Shown piece after piece: positions 3,202-53,642 of a DNA stretch of 64,000 nt. A model generated the notes under the pieces. It was not told where the DNA came from. It saw only the letters and a program-made list of their open reading frames with translations, and did no database searches. Position numbers and translations under genes: made by a program. The stretch's first letter is position 1. Each line of letters begins with the position of its first letter. Source of the DNA: Escherichia coli (GTDB lineage: Bacteria; Pseudomonadota; Gammaproteobacteria; Enterobacterales; Enterobacteriaceae); the NCBI RefSeq assembly GCF_013315695.1, contig NZ_CP054353.1; one strand, given 5' to 3'.

Positions 3202-5016
3202 ATGATTGTGCGCATACTGCTGCTGTTTATCGCTCTGTTCACCTTTGGTGCGCAGGCGCAGGCTATCAAGGAAAGCTATGCCTTTGCCGTACTGGGCGAA
3301 CCCCGGTACGCATTTAATTTCAACCATTTTGATTATGTGAACCCCGCCGCGCCAAAAGGTGGGCAAATAACGTTGTCTGCCCTCGGCACCTTCGATAATT
3401 TCAACCGCTATGCACTGCGCGGCAATCCGGGCGCACGCACCGAGCAGCTGTACGACACGCTATTTACGACTTCCGATGACGAACCAGGCAGTTATTACCC
3501 GCTGATTGCTGAAAGCGCACGCTATGCTGACGATTATTCCTGGGTGGAAGTCGCTATTAATCCACGCGCCCGTTTTCATGATGGTTCGCCCATTACTGCC
3601 CGCGATGTAGAGTTTACTTTTCAAAAATTTATGACCGAAGGCGTGCCGCAATTTCGTCTGGTCTACAAAGGCACCACCGTCAAAGCCATTGCGCCGTTAA
3701 CCGTGCGCATTGAGTTAGCTAAACCCGGCAAAGAAGATATGTTGAGTCTGTTTTCGCTGCCGGTCTTTCCAGAAAAGTACTGGAAAGATCACAAACTTAG
3801 CGACCCGCTCGCCACGCCTCCGCTTGCCAGTGGTCCGTACCGCATTACGTCCTGGAAAATGGGGCAAAATATTGTCTATTCCCGCGTGAAAGATTACTGG
3901 GCAGCAAACTTACCGGTAAACCGTGGACGCTGGAATTTCGACACCATTCGCTACGATTATTACCTCGATGATAATGTCGCCTTTGAAGCGTTTAAAGCAG
4001 GTGCCTTTGATTTGCGTATGGAAAACGACGCCAAAAACTGGGCCACGCGCTATACCGGTAAAAATTTCGATAAAAAATACATCATCAAAGATGAGCAAAA
4101 GAACGAATCAGCCCAGGATACGCGCTGGCTGGCGTTTAATATCCAACGTCCGGTATTCAGCGATCGCCGGGTGCGGGAAGCGATCACTCTCGCCTTTGAC
4201 TTTGAATGGATGAACAAAGCGTTGTTTTACAATGCCTGGAGTCGCACGAACAGTTATTTTCAGAATACCGAATACGCGGCCAGAAATTACCCCGACGCCG
4301 CGGAGCTGGTGCTTCTGGCACCAATGAAAAAAGATCTACCGCCAGAAGTCTTCACGCAAATCTACCAGCCGCCGGTATCCAAAGGCGATGGCTACGATCG
4401 TGACAACCTGTTAAAAGCCGACAAACTTCTCAACGAAGCAGGCTGGGTGCTTAAGGGTCAGCAACGCGTTAATGCCACAACGGGTCAGCCACTCAGCTTT
4501 GAATTATTGCTTCCCGCAAGCAGCAATAGTCAGTGGGTATTGCCGTTCCAGCACAGCCTGCAACGGCTGGGTATCAACATGGACATTCGCAAAGTGGATA
4601 ACTCGCAAATCACCAACCGCATGCGCAGTCGCGACTATGACATGATGCCGCGCGTATGGCGGGCGATGCCGTGGCCCAGTTCCGATTTACAGATTTCCTG
4701 GTCATCGGAATATATCAATTCCACTTATAATGCCCCCGGCGTGCAAAGCCCGGTTATCGACTCTCTGATCAATCAAATTATTGCCGCGCAGGGAAATAAA
4801 GAAAAATTACTGCCGTTAGGGCGAGCACTGGATCGCGTATTAACGTGGAATTATTACATGCTGCCAATGTGGTACATGGCGGAAGACCGTCTCGCCTGGT
4901 GGGATAAATTCTCCCAACCCGCTGTACGCCCTGTTTACAGTTTGGGTATCGATACCTGGTGGTATGACGTTAATAAAGCGGCCAAACTGCCGTCAGCCAG
5001 ACAACAGGGAGAGTAG
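3202..5016 (+). CDS. yejA: Periplasmic oligopeptide/microcin C binding protein of the YejABEF ABC importer
   Basis: 604-aa product from the second in-frame Met (MIVRILLLF...), signal peptide, family 5 solute-binding protein features; first gene of yejABEF. Confidence 0.9.
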   Translation: MIVRILLLFIALFTFGAQAQAIKESYAFAVLGEPRYAFNFNHFDYVNPAAPKGGQITLSALGTFDNFNRYALRGNPGARTEQLYDTLFTTSDDEPGSYYPLIAESARYADDYSWVEVAINPRARFHDGSPITARDVEFTFQKFMTEGVPQFRLVYKGTTVKAIAPLTVRIELAKPGKEDMLSLFSLPVFPEKYWKDHKLSDPLATPPLASGPYRITSWKMGQNIVYSRVKDYWAANLPVNRGRWNFDTIRYDYYLDDNVAFEAFKAGAFDLRMENDAKNWATRYTGKNFDKKYIIKDEQKNESAQDTRWLAFNIQRPVFSDRRVREAITLAFDFEWMNKALFYNAWSRTNSYFQNTEYAARNYPDAAELVLLAPMKKDLPPEVFTQIYQPPVSKGDGYDRDNLLKADKLLNEAGWVLKGQQRVNATTGQPLSFELLLPASSNSQWVLPFQHSLQRLGINMDIRKVDNSQITNRMRSRDYDMMPRVWRAMPWPSSDLQISWSSEYINSTYNAPGVQSPVIDSLINQIIAAQGNKEKLLPLGRALDRVLTWNYYMLPMWYMAEDRLAWWDKFSQPAVRPVYSLGIDTWWYDVNKAAKLPSARQQGE

Positions 5017-6111
5017 ATGGGCGCTTATCTGATTCGCCGTCTGTTGCTGGTGATCCCAACGTTATGGGCGATTATCACTATCAACTTTTTCATCGTGCAA
5101 ATTGCGCCTGGCGGTCCGGTCGACCAGGCCATCGCCGCCATTGAGTTTGGTAATACTGGTGTATTACCCGGTGCAGGCGGTGAAGGTGTTCGCGCTAGCC
5201 ATGCACAAACGGGCGTCGGTAATATCAGCGACAGTAATTACCGTGGCGGACGCGGATTAGATCCAGAAGTGATCGCCGAGATCACTCATCGCTACGGTTT
5301 CGATAAGCCGATCCACGAACGTTACTTCAAAATGCTCTGGGACTACATCCGTTTTGATTTTGGCGACAGCCTTTTTCGCAGCGCCTCGGTGCTGACGCTG
5401 ATTAAAGACAGTCTGCCGGTCTCCATCACCCTCGGATTGTGGAGCACGCTGATTATCTATCTGGTGTCGATTCCGTTAGGCATTCGCAAAGCTGTTTATA
5501 ATGGGAGCCGTTTTGACGTCTGGAGTAGTGCATTTATCATCATCGGCTACGCCATTCCGGCCTTTTTGTTTGCCATCCTGCTGATTGTCTTCTTCGCGGG
5601 CGGCAGCTATTTCGACCTGTTCCCTCTGCGCGGCCTGGTTTCCGCTAACTTTGATTCGCTGCCGTGGTATCAGAAAATCACCGATTATCTGTGGCATATC
5701 ACGCTGCCGGTGCTGGCGACTGTGATTGGTGGCTTTGCAGCGCTGACCATGCTGACAAAAAACTCATTCCTTGATGAAGTGCGTAAGCAATACGTGGTGA
5801 CGGCACGTGCGAAAGGGGTAAGTGAAAAAAATATTCTCTGGAAACATGTGTTCCGCAACGCCATGCTGCTGGTGATTGCCGGTTTTCCGGCGACGTTTAT
5901 CAGCATGTTTTTTACCGGCTCGCTGCTGATTGAGGTGATGTTTTCACTCAATGGTCTTGGCTTACTGGGCTACGAAGCGACCGTCTCGCGCGATTATCCT
6001 GTAATGTTTGGTACCTTGTATATTTTCACCCTGATTGGCCTGCTGCTGAATATTGTCAGTGATATCAGCTATACGCTGGTCGATCCGCGTATAGATTTTG
6101 AGGGACGCTAA
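5017..6111 (+). CDS. yejB: ABC transporter permease YejB
   Basis: 364-aa multi-TM ORF starting directly after the yejA stop; permease signature region. Confidence 0.9.
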
Positions 6112-7135
6112 TGCCGCGACTCAGCCCCGTCAATCAGGCCCGTTGGGCGCGTTTTCGCCATAACCGTCGCGGCTACTGGTCGTTATGGATTTTCCTCGTC
6201 TTGTTTGGTTTGAGTTTGTGTTCTGAACTTATCGCCAACGATAAACCGTTGCTGGTACGTTATGACGGCAGTTGGTATTTCCCGTTGTTGAAAAACTACA
6301 GCGAAAGCGATTTTGGTGGCCCGCTGGCAAGTCAGGCTGATTATCAGGACCCGTGGCTGAAACAACGGCTGAAAATAACGGCTGGGTACTGTGGGCACCG
6401 ATTCGCTTTGGTGCTACCAGTATCAACTTTGCTACCGATAAGCCCTTCCCTGCTCCACCCTCCCGGCAAAACTGGCTGGGAACGGATGCCAATGGCGGCG
6501 ATGTGCTGGCGCGCATTCTCTATGGCACGCGGATCTCAGTTCTGTTTGGCCTGATGCTGACCCTCTGCTCCAGCGTGATGGGCGTGTTGGCGGGGGCGCT
6601 ACAAGGCTATTACGGCGGTAAAGTCGATCTCTGGGGGCAACGTTTTATTGAAGTATGGTCGGGGATGCCGACGCTGTTTTTGATTATTTTACTTTCCAGC
6701 GTCGTACAGCCTAACTTCTGGTGGCTGTTGGCAATTACGGTCTTGTTTGGCTGGATGAGTCTGGTCGGCGTGGTGCGGGCGGAGTTTTTACGTACCCGTA
6801 ATTTCGACTACATCCGTGCGGCGCAGGCGCTTGGCGTCAGCGATCGCAGTATCATCCTGCGTCATATGTTGCCAAATGCCATGGTCGCTACCCTCACCTT
6901 TTTACCGTTTATTTTATGTAGTTCGATAACCACCCTGACCTCACTCGATTTCCTCGGCTTCGGTCTGCCGCTCGGTTCACCGTCACTCGGCGAACTGCTG
7001 TTACAAGGGAAAAATAACCTTCAGGCCCCGTGGCTTGGGATCACCGCCTTCTTGTCGGTGGCGATATTGTTGTCTTTGCTGATCTTTATTGGTGAAGCCG
7101 TCCGCGACGCATTTGATCCTAATAAGGCGGTGTAG
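6111..7135 (+). pseudogene. yejE: ABC transporter permease YejE, disrupted by an apparent 1-bp deletion (frameshift) near 6372-6377
   Basis: Two overlapping ORFs in different frames (6111..6554 and 6353..7135). The first carries the N-terminus then a junk tail; the second carries the permease body from ENNGWVLWAPIRF. 87 + 254 codons = 341 aa, the expected YejE length. Confidence 0.75.
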
Positions 7136-7136
7136 C

Positions 7137-8726
7137 ATGACGCAAACTCTGTTAGCGATTGAAAATTTGTCGGTGGGTTTTCGCCATCAGCAAACCGTAC
7201 GTACAGTAGTCAATGATGTTTCACTTCAGATTGAGGCTGGCGAAACGCTGGCGCTGGTGGGTGAGTCAGGTTCAGGCAAAAGCGTTACCGCGCTGTCAAT
7301 TTTACGCGTGCTCCCTTCCCCGCCGGTTGAATATCTCTCCGGCGATATTCGTTTTCATGGCGAATCGCTGTTTCATGCCAGCGATCAAACGTTGCGCGGT
7401 GTACGCGGTAATAAGATCGCCATGATTTTTCAGGAGCCGATGGTGTCATTAAATCCATTGCATACCTTGGAAAAACAGCTTTATGAAGTGCTTTCACTCC
7501 ACCGCGGGATGCGTCGGGAAGCTGCTCGTGGCGAAATTCTTAACTGCCTTGATCGCGTCGGTATCCGCCAGGCGGCAAAACGGCTGACAGATTATCCGCA
7601 TCAGCTCTCCGGCGGCGAACGCCAGCGGGTGATGATTGCGATGGCGCTGTTAACGCGACCGGAATTATTAATTGCCGATGAACCGACCACCGCGCTGGAC
7701 GTCTCTGTCCAGGCGCAGATTTTACAGCTATTGCGCGAACTGCAAGGCGAGCTGAATATGGGCATGCTGTTTATTACTCATAACCTCAGCATTGTCAGAA
7801 AACTGGCCCACCGCGTGGCGGTAATGCAAAACGGTCGCTGTGTCGAGCAAAATAACGCTGCTACGCTATTTGCCTCACCCACTCATCCTTACACACAAAA
7901 GCTACTCAATAGTGAACCGTCAGGCGATCCAGTGCCGTTGCCAGAACCTGCCTCAACGTTGCTGGATGTTGAACAGCTTCAGGTTGCCTTCCCCATTCGC
8001 AAAGGGATTTTGAAGCGCATTGTGGATCATAATGTGGTGGTGAAAAACATCAGTTTTACGCTACGAGCGGGTGAAACACTGGGTTTAGTGGGCGAGTCCG
8101 GTTCCGGGAAAAGCACGACGGGACTGGCGCTGCTGCGACTGATTAATTCTCAGGGCAGCATCATCTTTGACGGTCAGCCACTGCAAAATTTAAATCGTCG
8201 CCAGCTGTTACCTATTCGTCATCGCATTCAGGTGGTATTTCAGGATCCAAACTCCTCGCTCAACCCACGACTCAACGTTTTGCAGATTATTGAGGAAGGC
8301 TTACGGGTTCACCAGCCGACGCTTTCTGCCGCACAACGCGAACAACAAGTGATAGCCGTGATGCATGAAGTGGGATTAGATCCTGAAACACGCCACCGTT
8401 ATCCGGCGGAGTTCTCTGGTGGTCAGCGGCAACGTATTGCGATTGCCAGGGCATTAATTCTTAAGCCCTCGCTGATCATACTCGATGAACCGACATCATC
8501 ACTCGACAAAACGGTACAGGCGCAAATATTGACGCTATTGAAATCATTGCAACAAAAGCATCAACTGGCCTATTTGTTTATCAGCCACGATTTGCACGTT
8601 GTCCGCGCGTTATGTCATCAGGTTATCGTACTGCGACAAGGGGAAGTAGTGGAACAAGGACCGTGCGCGCGCGTGTTTGCCGCACCGCAGCAGGAGTATA
8701 CGCGTCAGCTACTGGCGTTGAGCTGA
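7137..8726 (+). CDS. yejF: ABC transporter ATP-binding protein YejF (duplicated ATPase domains)
   Basis: 529-aa product from [11 protein letters not shown]; two Walker A motifs (GESGSGKS twice), two LSGG signature motifs; the ORF-track start at 7089 is an upstream extension. Confidence 0.92.
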
Positions 8727-8729
8727 CGC

Positions 8730-9074
8730 TTAAAAAGGATTGTAGTTTGAGAAGGGTTCGGCAATTGCCACACCAAAATTTTTCAATCGGCATGTTGCAG
8801 CAAACTCGTCCTGGCGATTTACAAACAGGCACGGCTCACCTTCACACTCCAGTACCGAGCATGGAACTTCGATGTCGCTTAACGCCTGGCTGAGTTTGTA
8901 CATCACCGACCATGCATTATCACCATCCGGGCTAAGCAATTTAAGCGCCACCAGGCTGTTGTCACCGCACGGTCCATTTTGCGGAATCGGTTCAACCTTC
9001 GAACCTGCGAAACCAGCAGACCAGCGATAGTTCTGCGGCAGTCGATGGACGATTGAGAGTTGTAATGAAGTCAC
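8730..9074 (-). CDS. yejG: Uncharacterized protein YejG
   Basis: 114-aa ORF convergent with yejF, stop codons 3 bp apart; size and position match K-12 yejG. Confidence 0.8.
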
Positions 9075-51555: not shown

Positions 51556-51564
51556 ATCTGGGCC
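51556..51564. repeat. 9-bp target-site duplication of IS1 copy 2 (atctgggcc); second copy at 52333..52341
   Basis: Identical 9-mer directly flanks both IS1 ends; the repeat encodes I-W-A of AtoS. Confidence 0.88.
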
Positions 51565-51579
51565 GGTAATGACTCCAAC

Positions 51580-52083
51580 TTATTGATAGTGTTTTATGTT
51601 CAGATAATGCCCGATGACTTTGTCATGCAGCTCCACCGATTTTGAGAACGACAGCGACTTCCGTCCCAGCCGTGCCAGGTGCTGCCTCAGATTCAGGTTA
51701 TGCCGCTCAATTCGCTGCGTATATCGCTTGCTGATTACGTGCAGCTTTCCCTTCAGGCGGGATTCATACAGCGGCCAGCCATCCGTCATCCATATCACCA
51801 CGTCAAAGGGTGACAGCAGGCTCATAAGACGCCCCAGCGTCGCCATAGTGCGTTCACCGAATACGTGCGCAACAACCGTCTTCCGGAGCCTGTCATACGC
51901 GTAAAACAGCCAGCGCTGGCGCGATTTAGCCCCGACATAGCCCCACTGTTCGTCCATTTCCGCGCAGACGATGACGTCACTGCCCGGCTGTATGCGCGAG
52001 GTTACCGACTGCGGCCTGAGTTTTTTAAGTGACGTAAAATCGTGTTGAGGCCAACGCCCATAATGCGGGCTGTTGCCCGGCAT
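51580..52083 (-). CDS. insB: IS1 InsB reading frame (copy 2)
   Basis: 167-aa ORF identical to copy 1 InsB. Confidence 0.88.
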
Positions 52084-52277
52084 CCAACGCCATTCATGGC
52101 CATATCAATGATTTTCTGGTGCGTACCGGGTTGAGAAGCGGTGTAAGTGAACTGCAGTTGCCATGTTTTACGGCAGTGAGAGCAGAGATAGCGCTGATGT
52201 CCGGCGGTGCTTTTGCCGTTACGCACCACCCCGTCAGTAGCTGAACAGGAGGGACAGCTGATAGAAACAGAAGCCAC
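52002..52277 (-). CDS. insA: IS1 InsA protein (copy 2)
   Basis: 91-aa ORF identical to copy 1 InsA. Confidence 0.93.
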
Positions 52278-53642
52278 TGGAGCACCTCAAAAACACCATC
52301 ATACACTAAATCAGTAAGTTGGCAGCATCACCATCTGGGCCAATGAATTAACCGAAGATATTCGCCGCCAGGCCTGGAAAATGGATGTGAGGATTATCAT
52401 TGTGCTCACCGCCGGTTTGCTGATAAGCCTGCTGTTGATTGTCCTTTTCTCCCGTCGCCTGAGCGCCAATATAGATATCATCACCGATGGCCTCTCGACT
52501 CTGGCACAAAATATTCCCACTCGATTACCACAATTGCCCGGTGAAATGGGGCAAATCAGTCAGAGTGTTAACAACCTCGCCCAGGCACTGCGTGAAACGC
52601 GGACACTTAACGATCTGATTATTGAAAACGCTGCCGATGGCGTCATTGCCATTGACCGCCAGGGTGATGTAACCACCATGAACCCGGCAGCAGAAGTCAT
52701 TACTGGCTATCAACGTCATGAACTGGTAGGGCAGCCTTACTCCATGTTGTTCGACAATACTCAGTTCTACAGTCCAGTACTGGATACGCTGGAACATGGC
52801 ACCGAACATGTAGCACTGGAGATCAGTTTTCCAGGCCGTGACCGCACCATTGAACTCAGTGTCACGACCAGTCGTATTCATAACACGCACGGTGAAATGA
52901 TAGGTGCTTTGGTGATTTTCTCTGATTTAACTGCCCGCAAAGAAACCCAGCGCCGCATGGCGCAAGCAGAACGCCTCGCTACACTGGGTGAGCTGATGGC
53001 TGGCGTGGCGCATGAAGTACGTAATCCGCTAACGGCTATTCGTGGTTATGTACAGATCTTGCGCCAACAAACCAGCGACCCAATACATCAGGAATATCTG
53101 TCCGTAGTACTCAAAGAAATCGATTCAATTAACAAAGTTATTCAGCAATTGCTCGAATTTTCACGTCCACGCCACAGTCAATGGCAACAAGTCAGCCTCA
53201 ATGCATTGGTTGAAGAAACTCTGGTACTGGTACAAACCGCCGGCGTACAAGCGCGGGTCGACTTCATAAGCGAACTGGATAATGAATTAAGCCCGATTAA
53301 CGCCGATCGTGAACTGCTCAAACAGGTACTACTGAATATCCTGATCAATGCCGTCCAGGCTATCAGTGCACGAGGGAAAATTCGCATTCGAACCTGGCAA
53401 TACAGCGACTCACAACAGGCCATTTCGATAGAGGACAACGGCTGTGGCATTGATCTCTCGCTGCAAAAAAAGATCTTCGATCCCTTTTTCACCACCAAAG
53501 CCTCAGGAACCGGGCTTGGTCTGGCGTTAAGTCAACGCATCATTAATGCCCATCAGGGTGATATTCGCGTCGCCAGTTTGCCGGGCTACGGCGCAACCTT
53601 CACGCTTATTTTACCGATCAACCCGCAGGGAAATCAGACTGT

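Follow-up and report, generated by a model that had tools for sequence, protein, structure and literature searches.

The yejE gene of the window, by which is meant the whole 64 kb stretch of Escherichia coli DNA analysed here, has lost a single G at the junction of codons 87 and 88. Both its sequence and its context place it in the YejE family, but as a coding sequence it is a pseudogene, and the deletion is genuine and vertically inherited rather than an error of assembly. The analysis establishes that the lesion is present, that it is inherited and rare, and that a second copy is lacking. A single event would account for the one-base deletion (the G in CTGGAAAAT): it would have occurred in the founder of one sublineage within a human-associated clone of E. 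coli and have been passed on vertically from there. The ABC importer YejABEF has two membrane subunits, of which YejE is one. The deletion cuts this protein after 87 correct residues, in the loop between hydrophobic segments 1 and 2, and adds 60 junk residues; the loss of YejE would most likely leave the importer non-functional. Taken as a whole, this account of a genuine inherited deletion of single origin and an importer that most likely no longer works is very probably correct.

Position and effect of the deletion in yejE

The yejE gene was 1025 nt long (6111..7135), compared with 1026 nt in the intact form, and was divided between the following segments.

6111..6371, + strand: yejE codons 1–87 in the original frame, assigned from the translation, from NF011596 profile positions 1–89 and from a hydropathy scan of intact YejE
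6371..6372, + strand: deletion site, 1 nt; CTGGAAAAT in the intact form and CTGAAAAT in the window, one G of the GG pair being gone (three-way and MS 21-1/MSB1_4I alignments)
6372..6554, + strand: out-of-frame tail of 60 junk codons (KITAGYCGHRF...SQFCLA) taken from the ORF list, with the stop TGA at 6552-6554 and with no family match past profile position 89
6371..7135, + strand: yejE codons 88–341 in the −1 frame, from the translation; the permease body with the remaining hydrophobic segments and the stop TAG at 7133-7135

Frame 0, read from the ATG at 6111, encoded YejE residues 1–87, the last of which were ...DPWLKQRL with codon 87 at 6369-6371. This part of the protein comprised hydrophobic segment 1 (about residues 23–43) and the beginning of the long loop that precedes segment 2. 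The frame starting at 6371 read ENNGWVLWAPIRF... and continued for 254 codons up to the TAG at 7133-7135; its translation was identical to residues 88–341 of the intact YejE of strain MS 21-1. The sum of 87 and 254 codons is thus 341, which is the length of intact YejE and also of the NCBIfam profile NF011596.

A first interpretation made from the sequence alone (the sequence-only reading) had described yejE as two frames of 87 and 254 codons, separated by the loss of one G from ctggaaaat. The total of 341 codons was borne out by the translations of both frames. Alignment with MS 21-1 agreed with the proposed position and nature of the shift, placing the missing G of ctGGaaaat at 6371/6372, and the whole-gene comparison revealed no other difference between the two yejE sequences: MS 21-1 carries the extra G of CTGGAAAAT, seen as a 1-nt gap in the window, and is otherwise identical. 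The upstream frame does end in a junk tail as described, but the figure of 87 applies to the genuine codons only, since the ORF continues for a further 60 codons to the TGA at 6552-6554 and specifies 147 aa in total.

The two halves of the gene matched the YejE family model at positions 1–89 (E=1e-55) and 149–341 (E=1e-129), so the resemblance of the split product to YejE was not due to chance. Scored separately they reached 189 and 432 bits, against a curated NF011596 cutoff of 439. The intact allele, which differs by the single G, scored 779 bits over positions 1–341 and lay above this cutoff, and it is through this allele that the locus has full-length membership of the family. An uninterrupted frame of 341 codons was absent from the window, the premature stop lying at 6552-6554, and the window yejE was therefore classed as a pseudogene.

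The identification of the gene as yejE, also proposed in the sequence-only reading, was supported both by the family-model matches and by the gene order. The order yejA-yejB-yejE-yejF was canonical, as determined from the ORFs and from the PGAP annotation of the matching public record, and the genomic context was thus that of yejE. The other three genes of the operon were as follows.

3202..5016, + strand: yejA, periplasmic substrate-binding protein of the Yej importer; intact, from the PGAP annotation of the matching record; WP_001329528.1, also present in relatives with intact yejE
5017..6111, + strand: yejB, first permease subunit; intact, 364 aa, its stop overlapping the yejE start; WP_000501617.1, common to relatives
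7137..8726, + strand: yejF, double ATPase subunit; intact, 529 aa; WP_000194944.1, common to MS 21-1

The protein accessions of all three were the same as in relatives with an intact yejE. That yejA, yejB and yejF were intact and unchanged points to a fairly recent loss of yejE, or to these genes still being of use to the cell.

Distribution of the deletion and relationship of the carriers

The exact 147-aa frameshift product was found on 67 contigs (108 index blocks) originating from NCBI, ENA and Logan, a count in which the same isolates may have entered through more than one archive. The NCBI entries included EQX90963.1 (strain UMEA 3190-1) and STF38046.1. At the DNA level, two of the 67 contigs were checked, namely L007, a metagenome scaffold from ENA, and L008, assembled by Logan from SRR34483767. 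In both of these the deleted form was present and the intact form was absent, and both carried the same lineage SNPs along with the deletion. The close relatives AF3 and MS 21-1 keep the G, and their intact YejE is the same protein in both (WP_001137750.1).

Amongst complete E. coli genomes the deletion was very rare, being found in only one of 5,426, that of strain MSB1_4I (NZ_LR898874.1), which was isolated from a rectal swab in Australia. This genome matched the window yejE with 100 % identity over 1025 nt, and every other match listed aligned over 1026 nt. A 71-nt probe spanning the site was found in exact form in one of the 5,417 complete genomes that it matched, which argues that the deletion is not a recurrent artefact of the sequence context. 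PGAP marks the yejE of MSB1_4I as a pseudogene, with the comment "frameshifted". No other gene within the 64 kb of this record was annotated as frameshifted, indicating that the assembly is not full of indels.

Comparison of the window with MSB1_4I over the 64 kb revealed six differing positions (11795, 15935, 21732, 25340, 41043 and 42817). Five of the differences were SNPs outside IS1 and one lay inside an IS1 copy; in addition, the window possessed a further IS1 copy, inserted in atoS. These differences in SNPs and IS1 identify the window as a second isolate: the window and MSB1_4I are distinct, closely related isolates that share the deletion. In a three-way alignment with AF3, in which yejE is intact, the window and MSB1_4I shared 10 SNP alleles, an IS1 between narP and yejO, and the deletion itself. 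Two SNPs were private to the window (11795 and 41043) and three to MSB1_4I (15935, 25340 and 42817). The ENA scaffold differed from the window solely at the window-private site 11795. Among the variants private to the window was RadD G109S. Neither this RadD variant nor the AtoS truncated by IS1 had an exact counterpart in the indexed collections.

The two IS1 elements were located as follows.

21471..22238: IS1 between narP and yejO, with target duplication GGTTGTAGT; also in MSB1_4I, not in AF3
51565..52332: IS1 inside atoS, the acetoacetate (ato) sensor kinase gene, with the 9-bp target duplication ATCTGGGCC at 51556-51564 and 52333-52341

The first of these is a lineage marker that accompanies the yejE deletion. 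The second was private to the window, being missing from both MSB1_4I and AF3, and the interruption of atoS predicts that induction of the ato operon is lost. For the first 25 kb of the window, each of the two genomes showed 39 matching places, which suggests that IS copies are numerous.

The sequence-only reading had held that the split could equally well be a sequencing or assembly error. According to this explanation the G would be present in the cell and would have been dropped during consensus calling, and the context does offer some grounds for it: the site adjoins the short homopolymers GG and AAAA, and the matching public record is the only complete genome with the deleted form. An artefact would, however, be expected to remain confined to one assembly, whereas the identical deletion was reproduced in assemblies from different laboratories and from three archives (NCBI, ENA and Logan) and in a second, distinct isolate. 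Its distribution also tracks the phylogeny given by the SNPs and IS1, the G is kept in close relatives, and the 64 kb region is otherwise devoid of annotated frameshifted genes. The 67 contigs, the two DNA-level checks and the sharing of the lesion by two distinct isolates favour a real mutation, and an error in consensus calling is very improbable. The occurrence of the lesion in independent assemblies and isolates, in agreement with the lineage markers, is that of an inherited pseudogene.

One of the carriers showed further changes. In the Logan assembly of SRR34483767, which has the yejE deletion, a 16-nt tandem duplication (TCGCAAAGTGGATAAC) frameshifts yejA; it is located in the region 8484..8906 of that contig, equivalent to about position 4586 of the window. 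This single case is consistent with the operon no longer being kept up and may represent secondary decay in a descendant. The pdeN gene was also split in this assembly (5438..6994).

Consequences for the importer and possible residual YejE products

The hydropathy scan of intact YejE placed hydrophobic segments at about residues 23–43, 141–164, 179–227, 253–277 and 304–335. Given these positions, the break at residue 87/88 lies inside the long loop after segment 1, and the truncated product retains only the first of the hydrophobic segments. A second copy of yejE was not found in MSB1_4I, which has a single locus.

Transposon insertion in, or deletion of, any one of yejA, yejB, yejE and yejF leads to microcin C resistance (Novikova et al., 2007, as summarised in PMC10924461). 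Corramycin has been reported to select spontaneous frameshifts in YejE and YejF in E. coli ATCC 25922 (PMC10099666). Since microcin C uptake depends on every one of the four yej genes, the YejABEF importer is most likely non-functional in this lineage. From this we infer that the carriers lack transport through Yej, and resistance is predicted both to microcin C and to any other compound taken up by this route. The inactive importer and the microcin C resistance foreseen in the sequence-only reading are in this respect reasonable predictions.

The DNA downstream of the lesion retains the capacity to encode C-terminal parts of the permease.

6554..7135, + strand: ORF of 193 aa in the true YejE frame, lacking residues 1–148; annotated in public assemblies as a gene of its own; matches NF011596 at 149–341 with 432 bits

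The TGA of the truncated ORF overlaps the in-frame ATG at 6554 (TGATG, 6552-6556), and the 193-aa ORF could thus be a possible reinitiation product. Upstream of the site, a GTG at 6353 with AGGA 3 nt in front of it opens an ORF that covers YejE residues 88–341. As judged from these signals, C-terminal YejE fragments may be made from the GTG at 6353 or the ATG at 6554, which could limit polarity on yejF.

This arrangement raises the possibility that the lesion is real yet incompletely inactivating, with an N-terminal fragment (segment 1 plus the junk tail) and a C-terminal fragment, produced from GTG 6353 or by reinitiation at ATG 6554, assembling into a partly active permease. The AGGA-preceded GTG, whose ORF spans residues 88–341, the in-frame ATG overlapping the stop of the truncated ORF and the continued integrity of yejA, yejB and yejF are all compatible with such a split permease. 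On the other hand, the AGGA is just 3 nt from the GTG, and the fragment starting at 6554 is without hydrophobic segment 1 and without the start of segment 2. The fragment starting at 6353 would have to pass an N-terminal loop of approximately 50 residues, as estimated from the hydropathy scan, across the membrane without segment 1. Moreover, yejA has also been lost in one descendant, and a split YejE is without known precedent. Partial activity of this kind is quite unlikely.

Restoration of full-length YejE by programmed recoding, either −1 ribosomal frameshifting or transcriptional slippage at CUG-AAA-AUA, has a negligible probability. The shift needed is indeed −1, and four consecutive A residues come directly after the site. 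Runs known to support transcriptional slippage are, however, far longer than A4. There is no in-frame X XXY YYZ slippery heptamer at CGG CTG AAA ATA, and the −1 frame substitutes GAA for AAA, so that a slipped tRNA-Lys would be mismatched at the first codon position. The split form was missing from 5,425 of the 5,426 complete genomes and is thus not a conserved feature of yejE. With no heptamer and a split form seen in one of 5,426 complete genomes, yejE was rejected as a candidate programmed −1 frameshift gene.

Sequence repeat at the deletion site and comparison with known systems

The deletion lies within a short direct repeat read from the sequence.

6364..6385, + strand: short direct repeat AACGGCTG(G)-AAAAT-AACGGCTGG, spanning the deletion site

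A 14-nt duplication allele, exactly the period of this repeat (QRLENNGW / KITAGY...), was identified on three other E. coli yejE backgrounds (proteins P0002, P0004 and P0008), suggesting that recurrent slippage may occur at the repeat. A cluster of −1-frame products with 26 members contained at least 10 distinct junctions amongst the 15 members listed; this cluster gathers only events from roughly codons 75–105, and many of its members are single contigs from noisy sources. Because of this ascertainment, no enrichment is claimed for the repeat site. A mutational hotspot in yejE was considered and set aside, as the cluster does not show this part of yejE to be hit more often than other parts.

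It is conceivable that loss of Yej was adaptive. Producers of microcin C-type peptidyl-nucleotide toxins in the gut could have exerted a selection that aided the spread of the sublineage, and the repeat AACGGCTGG-N5-AACGGCTGG at codons 85–93 could be a recurrent target through which lineages repeatedly switch the importer off. This proposal is considered unlikely. Plasmid 2 of MSB1_4I (NZ_LR898875.1, 1..50000) is of the IncF type; its genes include senB, a colicin E1 family microcin immunity gene and those of several iron-uptake systems. In the first 50 kb of this plasmid, which extends for a further 58 kb, neither mcc genes nor a microcin C operon were found.

A literature search retrieved no relevant paper on natural yejE pseudogenes in E. 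coli, on MSB1_4I or on UMEA 3190-1. The yejE frameshift is an ordinary lineage-specific pseudogene, and it is regarded here as already known because RefSeq flags the pseudogene and the event is of an ordinary type. It reveals neither a new mechanism nor a new type of element, and the value of the present work, in which an inherited pseudogene is told apart from an assembly error, is mostly practical. A natural sublineage, represented by many samples in public data, is predicted to lack both the sole route by which microcin C is known to enter across the inner membrane and a secondary route for corramycin. For studies of Trojan-horse peptide antibiotics, its members should be useful as natural controls. 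As MSB1_4I was recovered from a rectal swab, the Yej importer would also appear to be dispensable for human carriage.

Compared with the intact yejE of E. coli (NF011596; WP_001137750.1), the window has the same locus and the same operon order, and its DNA is that of MS 21-1 minus one G; in contrast to the intact gene, its frame is broken at codon 87/88 and neither piece reaches the family cutoff alone. The laboratory yej mutants summarised in PMC10924461 likewise involve the loss of a single yej gene. Those mutants were engineered or selected in K-12, whereas in the window the deletion of 1 nt is spontaneous and has become fixed in a clinical lineage in nature, with a phenotype that is predicted. 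The corramycin-selected frameshifts in YejE and YejF (PMC10099666) demonstrate that frameshifts in yejE arise readily and remove an uptake route for peptide antibiotics. They were obtained under drug pressure, in M9 medium and in an sbmA mutant of ATCC 25922, whereas the lineage of the window is a natural one with no known selecting agent.
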